NCBI GenBank assembly: GCA_046704725.1
Contig: JBJKRI010000006.1
Coordinates: 160,001 to 224,000, forward strand
Direction of reading: 5' to 3'
From: Candidatus Woesearchaeota archaeon
GTDB taxonomy: Archaea; Nanobdellota; Nanobdellia; Woesearchaeales; SKIA01
DNA length: 64,000 bases
Shown: positions 9,794 through 23,148 of the stretch, piece by piece
How the letters are laid out: every line of letters begins with the position of its first letter
Numbering within the stretch: the first letter of the stretch is position 1
Notes under the pieces: generated by a model
The model's database searches: none
What the model was told of the DNA's origin: nothing
The model's input: only the letters and a program-made list of their open reading frames with translations
Position numbers and translations under genes: made by a program

Positions 9794-10419
9794 TTCGTCA
9801 CCTCGAACAACGACTCGTAGAAGTCCTCGATGTGCTTTCCGAACTTCGCGCTGATACCGACGATCTTGTACTGCGGGAACGCCGCCTGGATGCGTTTCAG
9901 ATCGGATTTCTTGAGGTCCGTCTTGTTCGCGACGAGCAGTACCGGGATGTCCCGTGCCTGCAGGTTGCCCACGATCGTGATGTTGACCTGACTGTAGGGG
10001 TCCTTGGTGGAGTCCAGGACGACGATGACCGCGTCCATGTCGTCGAGCCACTTGATGGCGTCGATGACGCCCTTGGTCGCTTCCTTGGCGCGGGACTTGG
10101 CGTCCTTCTCCTTCATGCCCGACTTGATGAACTCCTCGTAGTCGATCTTCGTGGCGATACCAGGAGTGTCGACGAGGTTGAAGGTGAGCTCACGGCCGTC
10201 CTTGCTCTTGATGGTCACACTCTCCTTGATCTGGACCTCGCGCGTCTCGTGCGCCATGCTCGAGACGGATCCCATCTCCTCGCCGAGCCAGTCCTCGCAG
10301 ATACGGTTCGCGAGCGTGGTCTTGCCGCCGTTCGGAGGACCGTACAGGCCGAGCTTGACCTGCTTCTTACCGCCGAACAGGTCGCGGAAAAGTGACTTCA
10401 GGAAGCTGGTCAGGCTCAT
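9790..10419 (-). CDS. oapA: Era-like small GTPase (OapA/ArvA)
   Basis: GLYGPPNGGKTTLANRI, HETR, DTPG, NKTD and ISA G-motifs; PYSQVN signature. Confidence 0.9.
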   Translation of the reverse strand: MSLTSFLKSLFRDLFGGKKQVKLGLYGPPNGGKTTLANRICEDWLGEEMGSVSSMAHETREVQIKESVTIKSKDGRELTFNLVDTPGIATKIDYEEFIKSGMKEKDAKSRAKEATKGVIDAIKWLDDMDAVIVVLDSTKDPYSQVNITIVGNLQARDIPVLLVANKTDLKKSDLKRIQAAFPQYKIVGISAKFGKHIEDFYESLFEVTK

Positions 10420-11750: not shown

Positions 11751-12325
11751 GGATACAGGTAGACCCGCTCCGTGCTGATGACATCCGGCGTGTCGAATAT
11801 CACCCGCGTGGACGTGCCGATCTTCGGGATGAAGTTCAGACGCACATAGGCCCCTTCACCGATGGAACTCGGCGCGAGGAACTGCATCTCGACCACATCG
11901 CCGCGCACCATGACACCGTTCTGGTGGTTCGCGCCCTGCTGCAGGTACGTGACCACGAACGTCCCGTTCTGGTCCGTCGCGTTCACCGAAGGCGTGCTCG
12001 ACGCATTGTCATAGATGTACGTCGTCGTCGTGTTGACCGTGTTCAGCGTCAGCGTGGAATCGCCCAGCTTGATTGAATCGCTTCCCGGTGCGAGCTTCAT
12101 GATCATCGAGAAGTTCTCGATGTTCTGGTTCGTCCCGTCGACCGCACTGACCTCAAGCACGACAGCGTTCGTGCTGATCTGGCTCGTGGCCTGAGAACCG
12201 GTGGACAACGCTCGTTGCTGGAGGCTCCCAGCAGTCTGTATAAGCACTCCTGCAGCCACCGCGGCGACGAGCAGGAGAGATATGAAGATTATCAGGGTTC
12301 CGACGCCCATTTCTCCTTTTCTCAT
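11747..12325 (-). CDS. flaB: Archaellin (true start 12325; the longer track ORF is a shadow of uvrC)
   Basis: MRKG|EMGVGTLIIFISLLLVAAVAAGV; same C-terminus TPDVISTERVYLYP as the neighbouring paralog. Confidence 0.92.
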   Translation of the reverse strand: MRKGEMGVGTLIIFISLLLVAAVAAGVLIQTAGSLQQRALSTGSQATSQISTNAVVLEVSAVDGTNQNIENFSMIMKLAPGSDSIKLGDSTLTLNTVNTTTTYIYDNASSTPSVNATDQNGTFVVTYLQQGANHQNGVMVRGDVVEMQFLAPSSIGEGAYVRLNFIPKIGTSTRVIFDTPDVISTERVYLYP

Positions 12326-12490
12326 TACTATCACTCCATGCAGGGTCTCTCCCCTGCTCTCTCCACGTCGAACCTGAAAGTGGTCGTATTTAAACTTTCC
12401 TACACTCCGAAAAACACAACCAGACCCCGGAAAGCCCTGTTCCCAAACACCACGACAAGCAATAAGAACCGTCGCGCGTTCCACAAAGCG

Positions 12491-14191
12491 ATGCGCAAGC
12501 CGACCGACATCCCAAACGCTCCAGGAGTATACCTGTTCTCGGACGCGGACGGCGCGATCCTCTATGTGGGCAAGGCGGCGAGCCTGAAGAAACGACTGGC
12601 GAGCTACTTCCGAAAGGACGTGGACGACAAGACGCGACGCATGCTTGAGAAAGCAGCGCAGGTCGACACGATCACCGTGCGCAACGAGGTCGAGGCGCTC
12701 CTGCTCGAGAACCGGCTCATCAACCAACACATCCCGCCGTACAACATCATGCTCCGCGAGAGCAGGCGATACGCATGGATACTCGTCACGGACGAGCGGT
12801 TCCCAAGGATCCTGACCGCGCGCAACAAGCGACGGCGTGGACACTATTACGGGCCGTACACGGACGGGACGGCGCGACGGGCGATCGTGCTCGGTCTCAA
12901 CAAGGCCTTCCGATTGCGGACCTGCCGGACACTGCCCAAACGCGTCTGCCTGCAATACCACATCGGCAACTGCACCGGACCGTGCGAGGGACACGACACG
13001 AAAGAGGAATACTCGCGAAGGGTGAGGGATGCCGAAGCGGTGCTTCAGGGAAAGACACGTGCGCTCGTCGCGCGCTTGGAGAAAGAGATGCGCGACGCAT
13101 CGGCGAAGCAACGCTTCGAGCAGGCGAAGACCGTGCGGGACACGATCGCCGCGCTCGAGCGCCTGGAGACGACGCAGGTCGTCGAGCGCGAGGAGACCCA
13201 CGACCAGGACGTCATCGGGAACGCGTCGAACGAGGAGGAGGTCTTCGTCGTCTTGTCCGTGCGGCGCGGCGTCATCGCTCGAAAGCGCGAGTACCGGCTG
13301 CCCCAGGCGCCCGACGCCCAAGAGACGTTCCTCACGGCATTGTACCGCGAGGCGATACCGCCAAAAGAGATCATCGTGGGCGGGCTGAGCGAGGAACGGG
13401 CAAGAACGCTCGCAACATACTTCTCGAAGCTCGTGGAGGGCACGGTGAACGTGACCGTACCGCAGCGAGGCGACAAGCGACGATTGCTGGAGCTGGCACA
13501 GCAGAACGCGACGCTCGCGCTGACACGGGAGGATCCGGGCCTTGCGAGCCTGCAGAAGCGACTGAACCTCGCCGCGGCGCCGGAGACGATCGACTGTTTC
13601 GACATCTCAACGCACCAAGGGGCGGAGACGGTGGCGGCGAGCGTGCGCTACCGCAACGGCAAACCCGACCCGTCGGAGTACAGGCACTTCATCATCCGCG
13701 ACGCTGTGCACGACGACTTCGCCTCCATGCGCGAAGCGGTGTCCAGAAGGTATGCTAGTTCACCGTTACCGGACCTGATCGTCATCGACGGCGGCAACGG
13801 ACAGCTGTCGGCGGCGGGAGTGGCATTGGCCTCGCAAGACCATGTGACGGTCATAGCGCTCGCGAAGAAAGAGGAGGAGATCTACGTGCCCGGACTGTCG
13901 TTTGCGCTACGCATGGACGACAAGGATCCAGGGCTCTTATTGTTGCGGCGCATCCGGGACGCGACGCACCGCTTCGTCATCGGGCACCACCGCGGGCGGC
14001 GGCGAAAAGCCATGAGCGCGAGCATGCTCGACCACGTGTCCGGCATCGGAGCGGCGAGAAAAGACAAGCTCTACAAGCGCTTCGGGACGTTCGAGCATAT
14101 CGCGGAAGCGAGCAAGAAAGAACTGCAGGATGTATTGGGGGAGAGGACCGGAACCCACTTATACAAGCGATTGCACGACGCAGCGCGATGA
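12491..14191 (+). CDS. uvrC: Excinuclease ABC subunit C
   Basis: GIY-YIG (PGVYLF...LYVGKA), EALLLE, UVR domain, CFDIS, PDLIVIDGG.GQ, C-terminal HhH. Confidence 0.96.
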   Translation: MRKPTDIPNAPGVYLFSDADGAILYVGKAASLKKRLASYFRKDVDDKTRRMLEKAAQVDTITVRNEVEALLLENRLINQHIPPYNIMLRESRRYAWILVTDERFPRILTARNKRRRGHYYGPYTDGTARRAIVLGLNKAFRLRTCRTLPKRVCLQYHIGNCTGPCEGHDTKEEYSRRVRDAEAVLQGKTRALVARLEKEMRDASAKQRFEQAKTVRDTIAALERLETTQVVEREETHDQDVIGNASNEEEVFVVLSVRRGVIARKREYRLPQAPDAQETFLTALYREAIPPKEIIVGGLSEERARTLATYFSKLVEGTVNVTVPQRGDKRRLLELAQQNATLALTREDPGLASLQKRLNLAAAPETIDCFDISTHQGAETVAASVRYRNGKPDPSEYRHFIIRDAVHDDFASMREAVSRRYASSPLPDLIVIDGGNGQLSAAGVALASQDHVTVIALAKKEEEIYVPGLSFALRMDDKDPGLLLLRRIRDATHRFVIGHHRGRRRKAMSASMLDHVSGIGAARKDKLYKRFGTFEHIAEASKKELQDVLGERTGTHLYKRLHDAAR

Positions 14192-14961
14192 GAGACTGCA
14201 TAGAACGGCTCGTCATAGAAGCCGGCGAAATCGTCATGCCCTACTTCGGGAACACCAGCCACGTCGAGAAGACGTCTCGCGCGGACGTCCTCACGGAGGC
14301 CGACCTAGCGAGCGAGCGCCACATCATCGAGAGCATCCGGCACGATTTCCCCGACGACAACATCTTCAGCGAGGAGGCGGGCGGGATCAAGGACTTCTCG
14401 GGGCGCACATGGATCGTCGACCCGATCGACGGGACGCACAACTTCTCACGGCATTTGCCTGTCTTCGCCATCATGGTCGCGCTCGTGGAGAACGAAAAAG
14501 TGATGCATTCGGCGATCAGGGTCCCAGTCACCAAGGAGACGTTCTCCGCCAGCCGCGGCGAAGGGGCGTACCGCGACGGCGAGCGCATCACGTGCTCGAC
14601 GCACGCGGCGGTGGACGATAGCGTGGGCCATCTCGACTTCCCATGGGACGATCCGACGTGGGAAGAAGCGATGATCGCCGTCCATGACAGGATCCTCCGG
14701 GAGAACGGCTCGCTCAAGGACTTGTTCTCCATCGGCGTCTCTGGAGCGCAGATAGCGTGCGGAAGGTCCGACCATTTCTTCGGCGCTGGAGCACGCATCT
14801 GGGATTACGCCCCGATCTCGCTCATCCTCGAGGAGGCAGGGTGCATCGTGACAGGGCTCGATGGCAAGCCATGGACCATCACCGAGCCGAGCCTGCTCGC
14901 CGCGAACCCCATGCTGCATGCGCAGCTCCTCCGACATTTCACGGACGCGAAGGAGCGATAG
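14188..14961 (+). CDS. suhB: Inositol monophosphatase family protein
   Basis: TEADL..E, SEE, WIVDPIDGTHNF and WDYAP motifs. Confidence 0.88.
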   Translation: MRDCIERLVIEAGEIVMPYFGNTSHVEKTSRADVLTEADLASERHIIESIRHDFPDDNIFSEEAGGIKDFSGRTWIVDPIDGTHNFSRHLPVFAIMVALVENEKVMHSAIRVPVTKETFSASRGEGAYRDGERITCSTHAAVDDSVGHLDFPWDDPTWEEAMIAVHDRILRENGSLKDLFSIGVSGAQIACGRSDHFFGAGARIWDYAPISLILEEAGCIVTGLDGKPWTITEPSLLAANPMLHAQLLRHFTDAKER

Positions 14962-14985
14962 CCGCACGACCTTTCTGACGCAGAA

Positions 14986-15285
14986 TCAGTGCACGGCAGG
15001 ACGATGCACGTCGTAGGAGCTGTCGTGGAACACGTAGATCGTCGGACCACTGCCTCGAGGATAATAGACCTGCAACGACAGTGGGCGCCCCGGCAGCAAG
15101 GACGGCTCGAGTCGTTTCCACGTCGGGTCAGCGACAAAGACACCGAGCGCCGCTGTTTTCTCATCGATCGTCGGCAACGCAGCGATGCGATTCATCTCGC
15201 CTCGAACGGTCCTTCCGATCACGCGAGGGCCATCGCGGCTTCCCAGAGCGCCAGGCATCGGCCCGGGCATCAATCGTCCTCCCAT
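14986..15285 (-). CDS. Hypothetical protein
   Basis: ORF in the gap, co-oriented with its neighbours; no motif. Confidence 0.35.
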   Translation of the reverse strand: MGGRLMPGPMPGALGSRDGPRVIGRTVRGEMNRIAALPTIDEKTAALGVFVADPTWKRLEPSLLPGRPLSLQVYYPRGSGPTIYVFHDSSYDVHRPAVH

Positions 15286-15339
15286 ACGCAGCGGAATCGC
15301 ATCTTGTTCAAAAAGGTTCTGCGCGATGCGTGGGGCGGA

Positions 15340-16710
15340 CTACGACGAGGAAAAATCCTCCGCAGTCCAACGCGCGTAGAACGCGTCCACGGCCCGTTCC
15401 ATATAGCGCAGTCTCGCCGGACTGCCGCGTTCCGGACTCATGAAACGTTGCAGGGAGTCTTTCGGAACAGCATATATCTCCGGGCGTGAGGATCCCACCA
15501 CCTTCACGCCGACCTCTCTCAAGTACTCCAGCACGTGATGCGTATTCCGACGGACGCCCTCGAATCCATGCATGTCCTTGCTCGTGAACAGCATGAACGG
15601 TTTTCCGGAGATACTGTTGAACAGGCTTCCACGGATCTCCTCACGCATCCGCCCGTATATCGATGATTCATTGTCTAGCGCGAGCGGCAGCTCTTCCTCT
15701 GTCAGGTACAGCACGCCTTGCGGTAGAGCACCCCCAGTAACGAACCCTCCGCGCAAGCGACCTTCTCGTATTCTTGTCTCAAGCGTCGGTTTGCGGAGGG
15801 CTCCCGGAAGGGACCCGAAGTGCTTCGTGGTGACAAGAAGGACTCCTGGCGAGTACCAGCCCGGCAGGCCGTCGAGCGTTGACAGGCCTCCTTCGTACGC
15901 TCCCACAGAAGTCTCTACAGGATGGAGCTTGGGCTGGTGGCCGTTCATGGAGATGTCATCGACATCGATATGCCCTTCCCATCGGTTCACTATGCTGCGC
16001 ATCACGACGGCGTGGAGCTCCCGCACGTTGCCCGGCCACGCCTCATTTTTGAGTCGCTCCACCGCCGCTTCGGTGAAGCCGAGGGTCTTCGCCTCGAAAT
16101 GGCTGCGCGTGCGTGCATGGAGATATGCCACGATCTCCGGAATATCATCCGGTCGCTCGCGCAATGGCGGGACGATGATCTCGTACTGCGCGATGCGATG
16201 GAAGAGGTCCCGACGGAATCCGTCCTCGAACGCGTCGCGCAGCGATGCGTTGGTCGCGGAGAGCACGCGGGTGACGACCTTCTGCGGCAAGGTATCTCCG
16301 ACCGGAATGATAAGGTCCTCCTCAAGGAAGCGCAGGAGCTTTGGTTGGAGCTGGGGCGGCATGTCGCCTATCTCATCGAGGAACAACGTCCCTCCTTCAG
16401 CTGCCTTCACGAAGCCCTTGCTGTCCGAGCTCGCCCCGGTGAACGCGCCCTTGCGGTGCCCGAACAGCGTCGACTCCGCAAGATCCAGAGGGAGGGCCGA
16501 GCAATTCACGGCGACGTACGGATTCATGGCGTTGGGACCGAGATGATGGAGGGCACGGGCGACGAGCTCCTTGCCGACGCCAGTCTCTCCCTGGATGAGC
16601 ACACGGATGTCGAGCTGTGCCAGGCGGCGTATCTGTTCATAGAGCGTCTGCATCGGTGCGGAAGAGCCGATAATCCGAAAATCGGTTCCGGGAATCTGCA
16701 AGGACCGCAT
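15340..16710 (-). CDS. Sigma-54-interaction (bEBP-type) AAA+ ATPase with an unrecognised C-terminal region
   Basis: GETGVGKE, VAVNCSAL, ESTLFGHRKGAFTGA, GGTLFLDEIGDM, QPKLLRFLE, SATN, FRRDLFHRI, PPLRER and WPGNVREL motifs. Confidence 0.9.
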   Translation of the reverse strand: MRSLQIPGTDFRIIGSSAPMQTLYEQIRRLAQLDIRVLIQGETGVGKELVARALHHLGPNAMNPYVAVNCSALPLDLAESTLFGHRKGAFTGASSDSKGFVKAAEGGTLFLDEIGDMPPQLQPKLLRFLEEDLIIPVGDTLPQKVVTRVLSATNASLRDAFEDGFRRDLFHRIAQYEIIVPPLRERPDDIPEIVAYLHARTRSHFEAKTLGFTEAAVERLKNEAWPGNVRELHAVVMRSIVNRWEGHIDVDDISMNGHQPKLHPVETSVGAYEGGLSTLDGLPGWYSPGVLLVTTKHFGSLPGALRKPTLETRIREGRLRGGFVTGGALPQGVLYLTEEELPLALDNESSIYGRMREEIRGSLFNSISGKPFMLFTSKDMHGFEGVRRNTHHVLEYLREVGVKVVGSSRPEIYAVPKDSLQRFMSPERGSPARLRYMERAVDAFYARWTAEDFSSS

Positions 16711-16809
16711 GATTCCACGAGTCAATAGTGACGTATTCAAAAAGCTTTTCTTCGAAAAAGCAATGGCGTCCGGCAGCGAAGACGCATAACGCCGGCTTCT
16801 CGCAGTGTC

Positions 16810-17151
16810 CTATCCTTCACGGACGACGCTCTGGCACCAACCATGCTTGCGGAAGAAATCGTAGTGGGTGATCTGCGAATAACCGTTGAAACGGTCCCTG
16901 ACCGCCGTTACTCGCACGACACAGCTTGACGAAGCGTATCCTTCCCGCAGGTCGGGGCGCAGGAACACGGAGAGCAAGACATTCCTCCCGAACGGATCGT
17001 GCATGATGTAATCGCGGAGGATGTCGAAGACCTGCCGGTCCGAGGCGTCCGACGGCAACGAATCCACGAGGGACTCGAGATGTTTCGAGAGGCTTCCCCC
17101 GCCCAGGCAGAAGCGGAAGTCGAGCGACGGTGTCGCGGGTTCCATGGCCAC
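16810..17151 (-). CDS. Hypothetical protein
   Basis: 113-aa ORF co-oriented with the AAA+ gene; TTTAAG-like box near 17169-17174 on the minus strand. Confidence 0.5.
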   Translation of the reverse strand: MAMEPATPSLDFRFCLGGGSLSKHLESLVDSLPSDASDRQVFDILRDYIMHDPFGRNVLLSVFLRPDLREGYASSSCVVRVTAVRDRFNGYSQITHYDFFRKHGWCQSVVREG

Positions 17152-17243
17152 GTCCAGGCGAGCGGATACTTAAACGTTGGGCGGACCGGAACACGACAGG
17201 CTGCTCGCACAAACATCTTAAGCACGGGGTCGCTCCCAGCCTC

Positions 17244-17385
17244 ATGCCCAGAAACACGGTCTTCTCGCTCAAAGCGCCACAAGCCGGCGGGCGGGCAGCC
17301 CGAAGCCATCAAGGAGCTGCTGGACGGCTACAAGAAGCAGCAGAAGCAGACCCTGCTCGGCGTGACCGGATCAGGCAAGACATTC
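17244..17385 (+). pseudogene. uvrB: Frameshifted 5' fragment of uvrB (left island boundary)
   Basis: 17262-17385 aligns to 21226-21351 with a 2-nt deletion and about 10 mostly synonymous substitutions; encodes the region up to LLGVTGSGKTF. Confidence 0.9.
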
Positions 17386-17467
17386 TTCTTGACGAAGTCA
17401 AGACTATCTGTCCGAAGGACGCGGGCACTTCCGTTTTTATGCTAAAATAGCTCGGATTCCAAAATTG

Positions 17468-17524
17468 AACTAACAGACGGGTTGAGCGCGTTGTGAAACA
17501 ATACGTGCTAGTCATTTGTTAATG
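17468..17524. repeat. attC-like site 1
   Basis: AACTAAC-AGACGGGTTGAGCGCG-TTGTGAAACAA-TACGTGCTAGTCATTT-GTTAATG; imperfect palindrome. Confidence 0.82.
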
Positions 17525-17617
17525 GCTTGTAAGTGATTTTTAGTGCAAGATACTCAATGAAAGCGCAAGAATTATATAATAGAAAAGGATACATTTCTGT
17601 ATCAATAGGTGATGTAA

Positions 17618-17893
17618 ATGTCTGCTATTCTAGATGCGGATCCGAAGCACTGGCCCACGCTAAACACAGTGATCATGGTAGAGCAAACAATAAACAAGCT
17701 CGACGATAGTATCGTCACTGTTCCTCAAATCAAACGCGCGTTGCCACGAAAAGTCAACCATAATACCCTCAAACTCATCCTCAAGTACTTAGAGGAAAGT
17801 AACAAGATCGCCGTAAGCATAGATGGAATTACCTGGATCCACAATCAGAATCAAAAGCTACAACGAGCGATTCAATCAGGTTTAGAGCTGTGA
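17618..17893 (+). CDS. Putative antitoxin / winged-helix protein (cassette 1)
   Basis: 91 aa, wHTH-like (QIKRALPRKVNHNTLKLILKYLEESNKI); AGGTGA SD; GTGA overlap with the toxin-like gene. Confidence 0.6.
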   Translation: MSAILDADPKHWPTLNTVIMVEQTINKLDDSIVTVPQIKRALPRKVNHNTLKLILKYLEESNKIAVSIDGITWIHNQNQKLQRAIQSGLEL

Positions 17894-18243
17894 AACGAGC
17901 ACGCATTATTTTATCTCCAGAAGCAGAAGAGGTCTACAACTATCTGAACAAAGAGGCAAGCAAGTCAAAAACAGAGCGCGCAATACTGAATGCCTTCAAC
18001 AAGAAAAAAGATCTGATCAAGAACAACATCCACTATGGTGAACCGATCGCAAAAAGCAAAATTCCTGAGGCGTACAAGAAATCGTATGGAGTGACGAATT
18101 TATTCTGGGTAGACTTGCCGGATGCGTGGAGGATGCTGTATACGCTGACAAACGATGAATCTCAGATTGAGATTATCGCATTTGTGCTGGATATCTTCGA
18201 TCACAAAGCATACGAGAAAAAAATGGGATACAAGAAGAGCTAA
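17890..18243 (+). CDS. Putative RelE/ParE-fold toxin (cassette 1)
   Basis: Basic 117 aa; IILSPEAEEVY...NLFWVDLPDAWRMLYT...VLDIFDHKAY follows the RelE-like pattern. Confidence 0.62.
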   Translation: MKRARIILSPEAEEVYNYLNKEASKSKTERAILNAFNKKKDLIKNNIHYGEPIAKSKIPEAYKKSYGVTNLFWVDLPDAWRMLYTLTNDESQIEIIAFVLDIFDHKAYEKKMGYKKS

Positions 18244-18282
18244 TCATTGCCAACCTTGCAACTTCTGAAAATCACGTATTGC

Positions 18283-18338
18283 CACTAACATACGGGTTGA
18301 GCGCGTCCTGATAGGATGCGTGCTAGTCGTTGTTATGG
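18283..18338. repeat. attC-like site 2
   Basis: CACTAAC-ATACGGGTTGAGCGCG-TCCTGATAGGA-TGCGTGCTAGTCGTT-GTTATGG; 18273-18335 is identical to 19623-19685. Confidence 0.88.
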
Positions 18339-18417
18339 GTTGCTGCCGATATGCCAGGCGCAGTCTTTGAATTTCGCGAATTGATACTATTATAAAGGAG
18401 GAACATACTGTGTTAAC

Positions 18418-18864
18418 ATGGATTTTGCGTACGAAGGAGATTACACCTACGGTCACACTCGGGGCACCACGAAAGGTTATGTTCGGCTCGGAGAAGCGGG
18501 AAAGCTTGTTGGCATTGTACGAGATGACGGAGGGCAACGAAAGTTCCTCGTCGGCCATCACACAGACAACAGAGTAGAATTCTTCAAAATTCCCGAACTG
18601 CCACTCAGCGTTCGCTCTTTAGGATACAGCGCAAAAGGAACTCCAGACTCCAGCTACGATGCGCAGTGGGGAGTCATCCCCGTATTTTCAGACGTAGCAG
18701 TTTCATGGAGCAATGTACTCTTTGATCTTCGAGATGTGGAATCAGACCGAGACCTTGATTTCTTGGATGCAGTGGACTTGGATGACATTGTTCGCGCGTC
18801 CGAACAAATAGCTGAAGTCAATCCATCCACAGATACTGCATCTTTCCGACTTAATCCACTATAA
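18418..18864 (+). CDS. Hypothetical protein (cassette 2)
   Basis: Single ORF between sites 2 and 3; TTATAAAG begins 28 nt before the ATG. Confidence 0.75.
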   Translation: MDFAYEGDYTYGHTRGTTKGYVRLGEAGKLVGIVRDDGGQRKFLVGHHTDNRVEFFKIPELPLSVRSLGYSAKGTPDSSYDAQWGVIPVFSDVAVSWSNVLFDLRDVESDRDLDFLDAVDLDDIVRASEQIAEVNPSTDTASFRLNPL

Positions 18865-18937
18865 ACCCCATTTTCAATCGTGTTCGTCATGGAGTCAAAT
18901 GAAGTGCCTGAACTCCTGAAAGCATATCTGCATTTTC

Positions 18938-18992
18938 CCATAACATACGGGTTGAGCGAGTCGCTTGCGATGCGTGCTAGTCATTGTTAATG
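18938..18992. repeat. attC-like site 3
   Basis: CCATAAC-ATACGGGTTGAGCGAG-TCGCTTGCGA-TGCGTGCTAGTCATT-GTTAATG. Confidence 0.85.
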
Positions 18993-19104
18993 GCTGTCGT
19001 ATTGAACGTGCGCGGAGGTGCGGAGAGGCCCAAGAACACAATGTTCCCATTAAATAGTAGTTAGTTACCGGTATGTTTATAAGTACTGTTTTCTTTCCTC
19101 CTGT

Positions 19105-19596
19105 ATGTCGCTATTAGAGGAGTTAGTAGCTGAATACGCCCTTGATATCGATGGTGTTATTCTAGAGGATGTGGTACAGAAGCGATACTCCACACTCATC
19201 CAGAACGGATCGATAGACGCCATGACCTCGCTACGCGAAGCAACAGGAATCAACCCTGCAGAGGAGGTGGTACAGAACGGATACTCCACACTCATCCAGA
19301 ACGGATGGATAGACGACATGACCTCGCTACGCGAAGCAACAGGAATCAACCCTGCAGAGGAGGTGGTACAGAACAGATACTCCACACTCATCCAGAACGG
19401 ATGGATAGACGACATGACCTCGCTACGCGAAGCAACAGGAATCAACCCCAAGGTCCCAGAGGATGTGATACAGAACAGATACTCCACACTCATCCAGAAC
19501 GGATGGATAGACGACATGACCTCGCTACGCGAAGCAACAGGAATCATGCCGAATGAAGAGAATGCAAGAGCGTACGTCGCGCATCTCATGGAATAA
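19105..19596 (+). CDS. Helical tandem-repeat protein (cassette 3)
   Basis: Four ~32-aa repeats EEVVQNRYSTLIQNGWIDDMTSLREATGINP; TTTATAAG begins 29 nt before the ATG. Confidence 0.8.
   Translation: MSLLEELVAEYALDIDGVILEDVVQKRYSTLIQNGSIDAMTSLREATGINPAEEVVQNGYSTLIQNGWIDDMTSLREATGINPAEEVVQNRYSTLIQNGWIDDMTSLREATGINPKVPEDVIQNRYSTLIQNGWIDDMTSLREATGIMPNEENARAYVAHLME
19165..19545 (+). repeat. Coding tandem repeat, 96-bp unit x4 (last unit offset by +6 bp)
   Basis: Near-identical units start at 19165, 19261, 19357 and ~19459. Confidence 0.92.
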
Positions 19597-19632
19597 CTGT
19601 TACCCGCAAAAACGCACGAACACACGTATTGC

Positions 19633-19688
19633 CACTAACATACGGGTTGAGCGCGTCCTGATAGGATGCGTGCTAGTCGTTGTTAGTT
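19633..19688. repeat. attC-like site 4
   Basis: Same body as site 2; ends GTTAGTT. Confidence 0.88.
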
Positions 19689-19765
19689 GGTGTTGCTCTC
19701 GATAATTCTTCAATTTTTTCGTGTGAATCAATTTGATTTATATACTGTCTTTGCGTTGAGCCACT

Positions 19766-20203
19766 ATGATTATCCGTACTGCCACAATTGATGATTGTGT
19801 TGCTTGCGAATCCCTTAGTAAGATTCCTGAATTGTTAACTCCAGAAGGTCAGCACGTTGTCAAGGAGTACTTCGAAGTGCTAGTGGATGATGATGAATTG
19901 TTTATTGTAGCGGAAGAGCAACAGCAGATTGTCGGATATGTTGTTGGCGAGCCCATGAAAGCTAATCAAGCATTCATCAGTCTGTTGGTAGTTGATCCAC
20001 ACTTTCGGCGAAGAGGTATTGCGAAACAACTACTTGATGAATTTAGAACCCGCTGCGATACTAAAGGACTGAGATACATTTCATTATTCGCTCCTTCGTT
20101 CAATGAAGCAACGCTTGAATTCTACACAAAAGCAGGTTTCACTCGCGGAGAATCCTACATCTTGTTCAGCGAAAGCAGAATGCCCGATACCGAACAAAGG
20201 TGA
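19766..20203 (+). CDS. GNAT acetyltransferase (cassette 4)
   Basis: LVVDPHFRRRGIAKQLL acetyl-CoA motif; N..TLEFYTKAGF; TTTATATA begins 29 nt before the ATG. Confidence 0.9.
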   Translation: MIIRTATIDDCVACESLSKIPELLTPEGQHVVKEYFEVLVDDDELFIVAEEQQQIVGYVVGEPMKANQAFISLLVVDPHFRRRGIAKQLLDEFRTRCDTKGLRYISLFAPSFNEATLEFYTKAGFTRGESYILFSESRMPDTEQR

Positions 20204-20237
20204 AGGTCTTTGAGAGGTTTTCTGAAAGCACAATGAC

Positions 20238-20296
20238 AACTAACATACGTTATGGCGGACGCTTTGCGCCCGCGAACCATGGATGTTAGGCCTAAC
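20238..20296. repeat. Divergent integrase-proximal recombination site (attI-like or variant attC)
   Basis: AACTAACATACG start shared with the other sites, different body, ends in the perfect palindrome GTTAGGCCTAAC (20285-20296). Confidence 0.6.
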
Positions 20297-20355
20297 CGGA
20301 GACATTCCGGTTTTATCCACAATGAACTATTGAAGTTTGTTTCGAGCGGTGGAGC

Positions 20356-21195
20356 ATGGTTACAGAGGACGTCGAGCGCCGTCTGCTTAAGCAACTGGAG
20401 GATATCTGCGCTCTCAAGGGCCTAAGCGGCCAGACTGTCCGTGCGTACTCCTCAGTCCTGGCTCAGTATTTTGCGTATCTTCGACACAAGGAGACAAAAC
20501 TCGGCCATGAAAGTGTGAAAGACTACTTGCTAACGCGTAAGGTCAACCCGAATTCGTTGCGCCTGCACCGCGCGGCGCTGCAGTTCCTCTTCACCCACAT
20601 CCTGGACAGCCCGTTCTCCTTCAATCAGATACCGATCAAGAAAAGGCCAAAACAGCTCCCCAAGGCGCTCAGCAGGCAAGCGGTCAAGACGATGATCGAC
20701 TCGACAGAGAACCCCAAGCACAAGCTCATCGTGCAACTGCTCTATTCCTGCGGCCTCCGACTGTCGGAACTGGTCAATCTCCGACGGGACGACATCGATT
20801 TCGACCGCGGACTGGTCCATGTCAGGAAGGGCAAAGGCAGCAAGGATCGCTACACCACGATCTCGCAGTCCCTGCAGTCAGCTCTCCTCCGATACTACGC
20901 CACGAACACCTTCGCCACCCCCTATATCCTCGAAGGAAGGAATGGCAAGTACTCGAAGAAATCGGTGCAGAAGGTCGTCGAGCAGGCAGGCAAGCGCGCG
21001 GCCGTTAAAGCCACGCCCCACACGCTGCGCCACTCGTTCGCCACACACCTCTTGGAGGCGGGCGTCTCTTTACGCCATATCCAGCAGCTCCTCGGCCACG
21101 CGAGCCTTGACACGACCCAGGTCTACACCCACATCGCGAACAGCGACATCGCCGCGATCCCAAATCCATTGGACCGTCTCGAACGCAACGCCTAA
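20356..21195 (+). CDS. Tyrosine recombinase, integron-integrase-like
   Basis: Catalytic set GLRLSE, KGKGSKD, HTLRHSFATHLL, LLGH, TQVY; SAM-like N-terminus (LSGQTVRAY); no IntI-specific insertion visible. Confidence 0.92.
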   Translation: MVTEDVERRLLKQLEDICALKGLSGQTVRAYSSVLAQYFAYLRHKETKLGHESVKDYLLTRKVNPNSLRLHRAALQFLFTHILDSPFSFNQIPIKKRPKQLPKALSRQAVKTMIDSTENPKHKLIVQLLYSCGLRLSELVNLRRDDIDFDRGLVHVRKGKGSKDRYTTISQSLQSALLRYYATNTFATPYILEGRNGKYSKKSVQKVVEQAGKRAAVKATPHTLRHSFATHLLEAGVSLRHIQQLLGHASLDTTQVYTHIANSDIAAIPNPLDRLERNA

Positions 21196-21219
21196 AACCC
21201 GCGCCCCATTCTCACCCAC

Positions 21220-23148
21220 ATGCCATTCTCGCTCAAAGCGCCGTACAAACCGGCGGGCGGACAGCCCGAAGCCATCAAGGAGCTGCTGGAGGGCTACAAG
21301 AAGCAGGAGAAGCAGACCCTGCTCGGGGTGACCGGCAGCGGCAAGACCTTCCTGATGGCGAACGTCATCCAGGCGCTGGGCAAGAAGACATTGGTGCTCG
21401 CGCACAACAAGACGCTCGCCGCGCAACTGTGGAGCGAACTGCGCGAACTGTTCCCCGAAAACGCCGTGGAGTACTTCGTGAGCTACTACGACTATTACCA
21501 GCCGGAATCCTACCTGCCGCAGACGGACACCTATATCGAGAAGGACAGCAGCAAGAACGACGTGATCGACGCGTTGCGCTTGCGCGCGACGGCCAACCTC
21601 TTGTCGCGCGACGACGTCATCGTCGTGGCGTCCGTGTCGTGCATCTACGGCTTGGGGGACCCGGAGGACTGGGAGGAACTGAGCCTGCATATCGAGAGAG
21701 GAGAGAGCATGAATAGGCAAGGGCTCATCAAGGGCCTTGTGGACATGCAGTACGAGCGAAACGACACGCAGCCCCAGCGCGGACAGTTCCGCGTGACAGG
21801 CGACACGGTCGAGGTCGTGCCGGGATACCAGGACGAGCACGTGCGCATCGAATTGTTCGGCGACGAGGTCGAACGCATCAGCATCAGGCACCACGTCACG
21901 GGAGAGGAGATCGAGCGCGCCGAGCGCATCGTCTTGTTCCCGGCAAAGCATTTCGTGACGACAGAGGAGAAGCAAGAGCGCGCCATCGCGGGCATCAAGG
22001 AGGAGCTGGAGGGGTACTTGCCCACGCTCGGACCGCTCGAGCACGAGCGCCTGGAGCGGCGCACGAGGTTCGACCTGGAGATGATCGAGGAACTGGGGTA
22101 CTGCAACGGCATCGAGAACTACAGCAGGCACTTCTCCGGGCGCAAGGAAGGGCAGCCGCCGCACACCCTCTTGGACTTCTTCGGGAAGGACTGGCTGCTC
22201 ATCGTGGACGAGAGCCACCAGACATTGCCGCAGGTGCACGCCATGGCGCACGGCGACCGCAGCCGCAAGGAGCCGCTCGTGGAGTACGGCTTCCGGCTGC
22301 CCAGCGCTTTCGACAACCGGCCGTTGACCTTCGAGGAGTTCGAGGGCCGCATGCCGACAACAATGTTCGTCTCCGCGACGCCGGGCGAGTACGAGACCAA
22401 GACGAGCGGCAACCTCGTGGAATGCGTCATCCGGCCGACAGGGCTCTTGGACCCCCACATCACCGTCAAGCCCACGAAAGGGCAGATAGACGACCTCATC
22501 AGCGAGGTGCACAAGACCGTCGAGGACGGGAACAAGGTCTTGGTGACCACGCTCACCAAGAAGATGTCGGAGGATCTGACGAACTACCTCGCGCGGCGCG
22601 ACATCCGGGTGCGCTACCTGCACAGCGAGATCGAGACGCTCGAACGCACGGAGCTCATCCGGCAATTGCGGGCGGACGAGATCGACTGCATCGTCGGCAT
22701 CAACCTGTTACGGGAAGGGCTCGACATCCCCGAAGTGTCGTTGGTGGCAATCCTGGATGCGGACAAGGAAGGCTTCCTGCGCAACGAACGGTCTCTCTTG
22801 CAGACCATCGGCCGGGCCTCGCGCAACAAGGACGGGCGCGTCATCATGTACGCGGACAAGACGACGGACTCGATGCGGCGCGCCATCACCATAACGCACG
22901 AGCGCCGTGCATTGCAGGAGAAGTACAACACAGAGCACGGCATCACGCCCAAGACCATCGTCAAGGCGGTGCCCGAGCAGCGCGTGGCCATGAAGGACAC
23001 CAAGCACATCCCAGACGCTGATGTGGAGAAGACGATCGAATCCTTGCGCGAGGAGATGGCCGCGGCGGCCGAGCAGTTGAACTTCGAGCTCGCCATCGAG
23101 ATACGCGACCGCATCAAGGAACTGGAGAAACGGCTGGAGAAGCGATAG
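21220..23148 (+). CDS. uvrB: Excinuclease ABC subunit B
   Basis: GVTGSGKT, YFVSYYDYYQPESY, DESH, SATPG, GINLLREGLD; C-terminal UVR domain. Confidence 0.98.
   Translation: MPFSLKAPYKPAGGQPEAIKELLEGYKKQEKQTLLGVTGSGKTFLMANVIQALGKKTLVLAHNKTLAAQLWSELRELFPENAVEYFVSYYDYYQPESYLPQTDTYIEKDSSKNDVIDALRLRATANLLSRDDVIVVASVSCIYGLGDPEDWEELSLHIERGESMNRQGLIKGLVDMQYERNDTQPQRGQFRVTGDTVEVVPGYQDEHVRIELFGDEVERISIRHHVTGEEIERAERIVLFPAKHFVTTEEKQERAIAGIKEELEGYLPTLGPLEHERLERRTRFDLEMIEELGYCNGIENYSRHFSGRKEGQPPHTLLDFFGKDWLLIVDESHQTLPQVHAMAHGDRSRKEPLVEYGFRLPSAFDNRPLTFEEFEGRMPTTMFVSATPGEYETKTSGNLVECVIRPTGLLDPHITVKPTKGQIDDLISEVHKTVEDGNKVLVTTLTKKMSEDLTNYLARRDIRVRYLHSEIETLERTELIRQLRADEIDCIVGINLLREGLDIPEVSLVAILDADKEGFLRNERSLLQTIGRASRNKDGRVIMYADKTTDSMRRAITITHERRALQEKYNTEHGITPKTIVKAVPEQRVAMKDTKHIPDADVEKTIESLREEMAAAAEQLNFELAIEIRDRIKELEKRLEKR

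Follow-up and report, generated by a model that had tools for sequence, protein, structure and literature searches.

Gene content of the locus

The locus described here lies at 17.4-21.2 kb of a 64-kb window (the whole stretch of DNA that was analysed; positions 160,001 to 224,000 of contig JBJKRI010000006.1) from the genome of a Woesearchaeota-type archaeon. Its features read along the plus strand and comprise five hairpin sites resembling the attC sites of integrons, four segments with open reading frames (ORFs) between these sites, and a gene (20356..21195) for a Xer-like tyrosine recombinase of 279 amino acids (aa), which lacks the insertion specific for the integron integrase IntI. Judging by sequence comparison, this arrangement is probably an integron-type cassette platform, the recombinase of which belongs to a Xer-related clade without the IntI insertion, referred to as clade A in the following.

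The attC-like sites are located at 17471..17521 (site 0, farthest from the recombinase gene), 18286..18335 (site 1), 18941..18989 (site 2), 19636..19685 (site 3, repeat family D2) and 20241..20288 (site 4 or P, proximal to the recombinase gene and a candidate equivalent of attI), with distances of 815, 655, 695 and 605 nt from site to site. All five sites were found by a hairpin scan, and the covariance model R1, described below, scored the five sites with 47.4, 53.9, 48.5, 56.8 and 30.7 bits, respectively.

Cassette 1 (17618..18243, GC content 0.415) carries two ORFs that overlap (91 and 117 aa), while cassettes 2 to 4 carry one ORF each, with 148 aa (18418..18864; cassette GC 0.47), 163 aa (19105..19596) and 145 aa (19766..20203; cassette GC 0.425). 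The last one encodes a GNAT acetyltransferase (PF00583, 2e-17) that stays under the cutoffs of the GNAT families of NCBIfam, and Pfam and NCBIfam searches gave no assignment at threshold for cassettes 1-3. The ORF of cassette 3 consists for the most part of four tandem repeats of 96-102 nt (family D1, 19163-19553), the copies of which are 91-100% identical. The four segments between the sites have GC contents of 0.415-0.493, compared to 0.576 for the recombinase gene and 0.62-0.64 for the neighbouring host genes. Members of the protein family of the 117-aa cassette-1 product were found in 164 of 301 genomes of the order (a tally that includes the unpublished genome G137), often in several copies, and in none of three genomes of the same genus. 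Judged by their low GC content and by this scattered occurrence of the cassette-1 family without same-genus members, the cassettes are foreign, low-GC DNA. An AT-rich, TATA-like stretch can be read ahead of each cassette ORF, and each cassette may therefore be expressed on its own.

The recombinase lacks the IntI insertion

The recombinase possesses the catalytic domain of phage integrases (PF00589, 131.9 bits) as well as an N-terminal SAM-like domain (Pfam), and an alignment of 25 family members shows no variation at R135, K160, H222, R225, H248 and Y257. Five tests agree that the protein lacks the IntI insertion. The distance between the motifs GKGxKDR and HxLRH amounts to 56 aa. The Xer-like proteins examined have 48-66 aa there, and eight canonical IntI proteins have 100-107 aa; the segment from KGSKDR to HTLRH reads ...LLRYYATNTFATPYILEGRNGKYSKKSVQK... 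in the recombinase. The model of the integron integrase, TIGR02249, matched with 190 bits (cutoff 265) and in two stretches only, the middle of the profile being skipped, and the archaeal XerA model NF040815 reached 219.2 bits with an equivalog cutoff of 220. A phmmer comparison with VchIntIA (2a3v) also resulted in two blocks (query 21-177 with chain 16-177, query 203-275 with chain 246-320), between which there are 25 residues in the recombinase versus 68 in VchIntIA, and XerA of P. abyssi (4a8e) could be aligned from end to end (E 2.7e-49). The ALERKYP motif present in IntI1 and two other IntI proteins does not occur in the recombinase. In an AlphaFold2 model with a predicted local distance difference test score (pLDDT) of 86.6, the helices 171-183 and 201-214 are joined by a short beta hairpin only and the extra IntI-type helix was not seen. 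Foldseek ranked the XerA structures 4a8e and 5hxy on top and 2a3v third, and the alignment with the latter needed 320 columns for the 279 residues of the recombinase, with about 40 gap columns. The initial annotation had described a 279-aa protein with the full R-K-H-R-H-Y set, a XerD-like distance between KGSKDR and HTLRH and no ALERKYP-type segment. This description holds true, and neither the clear IntI hit nor the I2 helix that was regarded there as counter-evidence was found.

A C-terminal SPLD motif had also been considered as a trait joining clade A and IntI. It was dropped, since the motif is widespread (27/36 clade A proteins, 40/50 other DPANN proteins, 35/68 others and 7/8 IntI proteins).

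The host, with a genome of 1.18 Mb on 8 contigs (99.7% complete, GC content 0.61), is a Woesearchaeota-type (DPANN) archaeon; its small-subunit rRNA scores 1425 bits with the archaeal and 1078 bits with the bacterial model, and the named relatives of the recombinase come from Candidatus Woesearchaeota. Four genes with a PF00589 domain are present in this genome, and 20356..21195 is the only one of them beside hairpin sites. A second Xer-like gene, on contig C4, is taken to be the housekeeping XerA gene because of its orthologues in all five genomes of the genus. Clade A is represented in three of these five genomes, and since the other paralogue is the one conserved across the genus, the recombinase of the window is probably not the vertically inherited XerA copy. 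The two further tyrosine recombinase genes of the host are located at G000:C5:240322-240738 and G000:C6:96405-96815 (427-aa frame and 180-aa frame). The GC content of the host genome is higher than the 0.41-0.48 of the loci fetched from the same genus.

Hairpin sites and signs of their recombination

The scan for TAAC..GTTA hairpins gave five matches in the window, all inside 17471-20288, and 11 matches in the whole genome, five of which belong to the array. The covariance model R1 was built from 12 sites, with training sites from four clade A loci. In the whole genome it detected the five sites of the array and nothing else, and it had no match in 1.07 Mb from 79 unrelated loci, among them eight canonical bacterial IntI loci. 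The DNA fold of site 1 (-13.5 kcal/mol, z-score -3.5) was not equalled in stability by any of 200 shuffled sequences, and site 3 folds with -15.2 kcal/mol (z-score -5.1); both sites are identical from 13 nt left of TAAC through GTTA. Taken singly, sites 0, 2 and 4 fold no better than shuffled sequences. Provided that the sites count as attC sites, the array is a cluster of attC sites lacking an integron integrase (CALIN), that is, at least two attC sites less than 4 kb apart with IntI not nearby.

Arrays of relatives contain 3-6 sites each, and in this family of sites the TAAC and GTTA boxes are 48-170 nt apart with variable loops between them; a stricter scan for single hairpins had overlooked the longer, branched sites of relatives. 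When 31 sites of several genomes are aligned, the AAC/GTT cores show no variation and the TAAC/GTTA ends hardly any. The stems are paired in 90.9% of the cells versus 81.4% in shuffled alignments and 27-54% in slid controls, figures that are to be read with the reservation that fitting the alignment to the model promotes pairing. Changes on both sides occurred in 10 of the 16 stem pairs, and none of 500 shuffles scored as high.

The flanks of the sites carry a second sign of recombination. The 6 nt left of TAAC of a given site and the 6 nt right of GTTA of the preceding site are complementary at 3.67 of 6 positions on average (n=18). If the right flank is taken instead from the site itself, from the next site or from other sites, the mean is 2.04, 1.61 and 2.02, respectively (Mann-Whitney p 6e-6). 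Such complementarity matches the expectation for inter-site segments that were formerly closed into circles at the core. The covariation of the stems and the complementarity of the cassette ends thus indicate recombination of the integron type, as far as can be judged from alignments. An earlier, more specific version, which placed the crossover at the 3' core and put the gene at the array's far end, was withdrawn, since the flank complementarity fits either side of hairpin travel equally well. Public reads (one study with three contig-only runs and thin coverage, share 0.11) gave evidence neither way on recombination. An apparent joint from 17492 to 18970 in these reads is a repeat artefact, as its 22-nt side falls in an arm common to the sites.

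Some further features of the sites were noticed. The sequence ATTG is conserved 3-5 nt left of TAAC in most array sites of the window and of the loci L036 and L181, has no partner on the right side and might mark the orientation of the site or an additional binding site. Many of the longer sites (L036, L037, L042, L155 and L156) have in common a motif around CTGCAAG in the loop, such as GGAGACTGCAAGTCGGAGCC, along with a sub-hairpin GAAGTTTTTGCG-loop-CAAAAATTTGG; the short sites of the window are without both loop features. At L037 9232-9810, a 300-nt unit with one hairpin site is tandemly duplicated with 96% identity, and its 5' box reads TAAC in one copy and TATC in the other, both copies finishing with GATAA.

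Linkage of the sites to clade A

A genome-wide search with R1 (E <= 1e-3) had matches in 14 genomes out of 61, and a search of 151 genomes of the order had them in 36. Sixteen contigs carry both a site and a homologue of the recombinase gene; four of these contigs had supplied training sites for R1. The sites are located at most 7.2 kb upstream of the homologue and in the same orientation on 15 of the 16 contigs, and none is located downstream or inverted. On the sixteenth contig (G040), site and homologue are about 130 kb apart and the gene is one of the housekeeping clade. Among the clade A genes for which 350 bp or more of upstream sequence are available, 14 of 18 are preceded by a co-oriented R1 site (E <= 0.1), compared to 2 of 44 genes outside the clade. 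For one further clade A gene a site is present where the contig ends, for another one it is found 5.2 kb upstream when a larger locus is considered, and none of the examined genes of clade B, the housekeeping clade, has sites upstream. Homologues of the recombinase are thus flanked by TAAC...GTTA arrays, an association on which the proposal of the initial annotation depended. In many families of the order, gene, proximal site and array are linked in this way, specifically for clade A. A contig end less than 350 bp away on the 5' side was found for 18 of 36 clade A genes versus 6 of 50 genes outside the clade, which fits repeats or population variation just upstream of clade A genes.

Clade A, which is made up of DPANN proteins, was recovered in two trees, with 25 of 142 rows and a support of 96 in the approximate likelihood ratio test of Shimodaira-Hasegawa type (SH-aLRT), and with 36 of 105 rows (SH-aLRT 97). 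Quick trees turned out to be poorly searched, as a constrained tree was better by 23 log-likelihood units, and therefore a careful tree of 55 rows was computed. A scan of genome contigs, which yielded mainly bacterial Xer-like genes and few from Woesearchaeota, served as the source of the outgroup and of IntI, and the unpublished genome G210 contributed one control row; both G210 and the likewise unpublished G137 were used for tallies alone, so that our claims do not depend on them. The careful tree unites all 16 sampled rows of clade A (99/96), separate from the housekeeping copy. IntI (100/100) is grouped with bacterial Xer-like proteins (96/87). This assemblage has clade A as its sister, with weak support (87/79), and the other DPANN clades are outside. 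A tree constrained to join clade A and IntI was not rejected (approximately unbiased (AU) test, p 0.74), so that the two may be more closely related. By its position in the tree, clade A is distinct from both IntI and the housekeeping XerA. It is compatible with the tree that clade A never gained the insertion as well as that the insertion was lost; the neighbours in the tree are all without it.

The close resemblance to XerA raises the question whether the array is rather a Xer-dependent module, recombined as duplex or cruciform DNA or by the housekeeping XerA, acting singly or jointly with its paralogue, instead of a single-strand integron. Xer-dependent mobile modules are known, the recombinase is XerA-like over its full length (see the end-to-end alignment with 4a8e and the score with NF040815), a housekeeping-type paralogue is also present in the genome, and the present data fit single-stranded and duplex substrates alike. 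However, TAAC and GTTA boxes at the distances given above are too far apart for a duplex Xer core, the stems covary, and the sites are linked to clade A and occur upstream of none of the clade B genes examined. We therefore consider a Xer-dependent module quite improbable and an integron-type platform with a clade A recombinase the better reading of the locus. Just upstream of the housekeeping-clade Xer genes of L044 (about 9950-9990) and L045 (about 9940-9990), short dif-like palindromes can be read, ACGCGTATAA-6 nt-TTATACGCGT and TTCGTATAA-6 nt-TTATACGAA, respectively.

The proximal site

On inspection of the upstream regions of the 36 clade A genes, a palindrome of the form TAACA-NN-TATTAAGCG...CGCTTAATA was noticed. 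The strict motif AAC-N3-TATTA precedes 25 of the 36 genes, 23 times at 68-117 nt ahead of the called start, and is found at only 3 of 50 genes outside clade A, there at 161-260 nt, with a background rate of 0.034 per 390 nt. In site 4 of the window, TAAC is situated 115 nt ahead of the start codon, a position matching that of the conserved proximal site of the clade. Array, proximal site and 5' end of the gene follow each other as a mirror image of the arrangement intI-attI-cassettes. Four contigs terminate at most 2 nt from the proximal TAAC, a hint that variation, and hence crossover, might begin at the gene-distal box. On these grounds the proximal site is a candidate for the equivalent of attI; alternatively or additionally it may be the promoter or operator of the gene. 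Next to site 4, at 20285..20312 on the plus strand, a 12-nt palindrome GTTAGGCCTAAC that overlaps the end of the site is followed by a 7-bp mini-hairpin TAACCGGAGACATTCCGGTT, which opens with TAAC and closes with GTT. A similar stretch precedes the homologue from the same genus.

The regulatory option leads to the question whether the hairpins have anything to do with recombination, or whether they are terminators, operators or repeats similar to repetitive extragenic palindromes (REP) or miniature inverted-repeat transposable elements (MITE), with an incidental or regulatory position beside the recombinase gene. The hairpins are indeed located between ORFs, three of them taken alone fold no better than shuffled sequence, and the right arm TTAATA of the proximal site, as read from the sequence, could be the TATA box of the gene. 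Such elements would not account for the complementarity between the flank of each site and that of the previous one, the invariant AAC/GTT cores, the foreign GC content of the intervening genes, the confinement of R1 sites to the array within the genome, or the linkage to one recombinase clade with fixed side and strand. It is thus very unlikely that the hairpins are no recombination sites at all.

Duplication of uvrB around the unit

Directly 3' of the recombinase gene, the right copy of a direct repeat (21203..21362, plus strand; repeat search and tblastn) forms the start of a functional uvrB gene (21220-23148) and heads a working uvrB-uvrA pair. The left copy (17239..17396, plus strand), with a host-like GC content of 0.61, is a decayed, frameshifted 5' fragment of uvrB together with its upstream region. 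It shows 88% identity over 118 nt to 21245-21362 (families D3/D7), and a tblastn search matched residues 9-46 of UvrB to it with 87%. The array and the recombinase gene, the latter in terminal position, are hence part of a unit of 3966 bp that is bordered on either side by a copy of the uvrB start. In the genomes G003 and G004 of the same genus, uvrB directly follows the homologue of 12215-14191, and neither array nor recombinase is present there, which represents the empty site. Flanking target repeats, an integrase at the end and an empty site in relatives, by which integrative elements are recognised, are therefore all found at the locus of the window.

This is what one would expect if the recombinase were the integrase of a small island targeting the 5' end of uvrB, with the array as CALIN cargo, recombined in trans if at all. 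Apart from the 118-158-nt direct repeat around the unit and the two genomes with an empty site, arrays without a nearby homologue in G026, G030 and G038 agree with this explanation, and so does the view that the IntI insertion is essential. On the other hand, direct repeats around array and gene were looked for in L036, L037 and L181 and not found. In G001, a further genome of the genus, the array begins after the homologue of 12215-14191 on one contig, and on another contig a 60%-identical recombinase, an ORF of 282 aa, uvrB and uvrA follow each other in this order. Array and recombinase are thus similarly placed in G001, and a uvrB duplicate was not found in the stretches fetched from this genome. 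An island would also leave unexplained why a TAAC-type site is found at a fixed distance ahead of 25 of the 36 clade A genes and why side and strand of the sites agree on 15 of the 16 contigs; moreover, no IntI was found in the 301 genomes of the order and the 401 genomes of the phylum. Taken together, we regard a mere island integrase as unlikely, though with more in its favour than the other alternatives, and the roles of island integrase and array recombinase can coexist. For an integron-type platform, the uvrB repeat could mark the integration of the platform or a later rearrangement.

The 282-aa ORF of G001 (L035 8184-9032, minus strand) overlaps the start of uvrB by 4 nt and had no match at threshold in Pfam or NCBIfam. 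On the other side of the unit, the minus strand encodes at 15340-16740 a protein of 466 aa that carries a sigma-54 interaction domain (PF00158, 6e-59), despite the archaeal nature of the genome. Its gene belongs to 3 kb of sequence (14188-17151) that two genomes of the same genus lack between the flanking genes.

Canonical integrases and comparison with known systems

No hit of TIGR02249 over the cutoff was obtained in the genome of the host, in the 301 genomes of the order (including the unpublished G210) or in the 401 genomes of the phylum; the positive control, a plasmid-borne IntI1, was detected in one piece with 507 bits. In the survey of archaeal integrons by Ghaly et al. (2022, PMC9668308), for which the IntI-specific domain was required, the counts given are 6 IntI versus 539 attC sites, and the entries for Woesearchaeales and other Nanoarchaeota list genomes with attC sites, no IntI and CALINs throughout. 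Our literature searches for a Xer-like recombinase linked to attC arrays did not find one.

The locus shares several properties with bacterial integrons such as those of IntI1 and VchIntIA (2A3V). The 5' end of the recombinase gene faces the proximal site, which is followed by an array of short cassettes; the sites are imperfect palindromes with AAC...GTT cores, bulged stems and variable loops; the cassette ends are complementary; and the cargo, a GNAT protein and a two-gene module, is of the usual kind. In contrast to bacterial integrons, the recombinase has no IntI insertion, fails the IntI model and is placed outside the IntI clade, the proximal site of its clade is itself a palindrome with a TAAC box, the cassette ORFs point toward the recombinase gene, and R1 is blank at the eight IntI loci.

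Similar arrays of the attC type, mostly CALINs, are reported for Archaea including Woesearchaeales by Ghaly et al. (2022, PMC9668308), who describe archaeal CALIN cargo as rich in toxin-antitoxin genes and acetyltransferases. That survey does not consider Xer-like neighbours, and the likeness to our array is judged by its listings. The archaeal XerA/dif system (4A8E; XerA of T. acidophilum, 5HXY) provides the best match in sequence and fold, with a similar length and likewise without insertion. Unlike XerA, the recombinase of the window is a second paralogue from a separate clade (99/96), and it is linked to arrays of long hairpins instead of a single short dif-like palindrome. With integrative elements at gene ends, the locus has in common the 3966-bp unit between uvrB starts, the recombinase at the end and the empty site in two genomes. 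It differs from them in that the unit consists of the cassette array and the recombinase only and that other members of the clade are without flanking repeats.

Discussion

A number of observations have to be held against an integron-type platform. The uvrB repeat flanking the unit fits an ordinary island integrase. The support for recombination comes from comparing sequences, and R1, being blank at eight bacterial IntI loci, provides no equivalence with bacterial attC sites. The insertion of IntI has been reported to be necessary (Messier and Roy 2001; MacDonald 2006, both as cited by others), and Smyshlyaev et al. (2021) regard it as indispensable for integrons to function and assign Xer-related enzymes of candidate phyla to a group named 'Cand'. 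Regarding the linkage, the four clade A loci used for training R1 are counted among the positives, so that independent support comes from the remaining positive loci; the second batch of loci was chosen from genomes with sites already known; and the boundary of the clade was picked among nested supported clades after the distribution of sites had been seen. Relatives, moreover, are not independent of each other. In the set of 61 genomes, 11 of 31 genome-wide R1 matches have no adjacent detected homologue, and in G026, which is 99% complete and has four sites, a clade A gene was not found. Conversely, no R1 array sites precede the clade A genes of L022, L028 and L033, for each of which 900 bp or more of upstream sequence are available, although the genes of L022 and L028 carry the proximal motif. 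Finally, site 4 of the window fits AAC-N3-TATTA only loosely and does not match the strict motif.

An integron-type platform is nevertheless the best reading of the locus. We infer that the clade A enzyme recombines these sites and that its substrate is folded single-stranded DNA; a folded bottom-strand substrate is described for IntI in a 2022 review. According to this model, the enzyme would bind the folded, imperfectly palindromic TAAC...GTTA sites and exchange strands at the conserved AAC/GTT core. Cassettes would be excised as circles and inserted beside the proximal site, approximately 70-115 nt upstream of the start codon of the recombinase gene; these positions of crossover and insertion are likewise predictions from the alignments.

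The initial annotation had suggested that the locus may represent a separate class of cassette system, which standard tools would report as a CALIN plus a Xer-like gene. The second part agrees with the CALINs without IntI listed for Woesearchaeales in the archaeal survey (PMC9668308). The first part withstood the evidence that could have spoken against it, since neither an IntI hit or helix, nor a missing association of homologues with arrays, nor a canonical IntI elsewhere in the genome was found. An integron analogue with a Xer-derived recombinase would explain the published CALINs of Woesearchaeales without IntI. We tentatively extend this to the proposal, for which we see somewhat less than an even chance, that Woesearchaeales and perhaps other DPANN archaea or candidate phyla possess a second kind of integron, which combines an insertion-less, Xer-derived recombinase with folded hairpins of the attC type and a palindromic, attI-like site.

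IntegronFinder recognises the integrase by the IntI-specific domain, which is also considered necessary for the recombination of attC sites, so that detection and theory both depend on it. The numbers of the archaeal survey, 539 attC sites versus six IntI (PMC9668308), put the mover of archaeal cassettes in question. Clade A is a concrete candidate for this mover, connected to the arrays through its position and orientation as well as through the conserved proximal site. If this proves true, the recombination of hairpin cassettes would be independent of the I2 domain and would either have arisen twice or predate the insertion, and many archaeal CALINs would be complete integrons, the integrase of which is invisible to current tools. 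If the system is active, integron-type gene capture would extend to genome-reduced, symbiotic archaea, and the clade A enzymes would offer a natural comparison for the recognition of hairpin DNA without the I2 helix.

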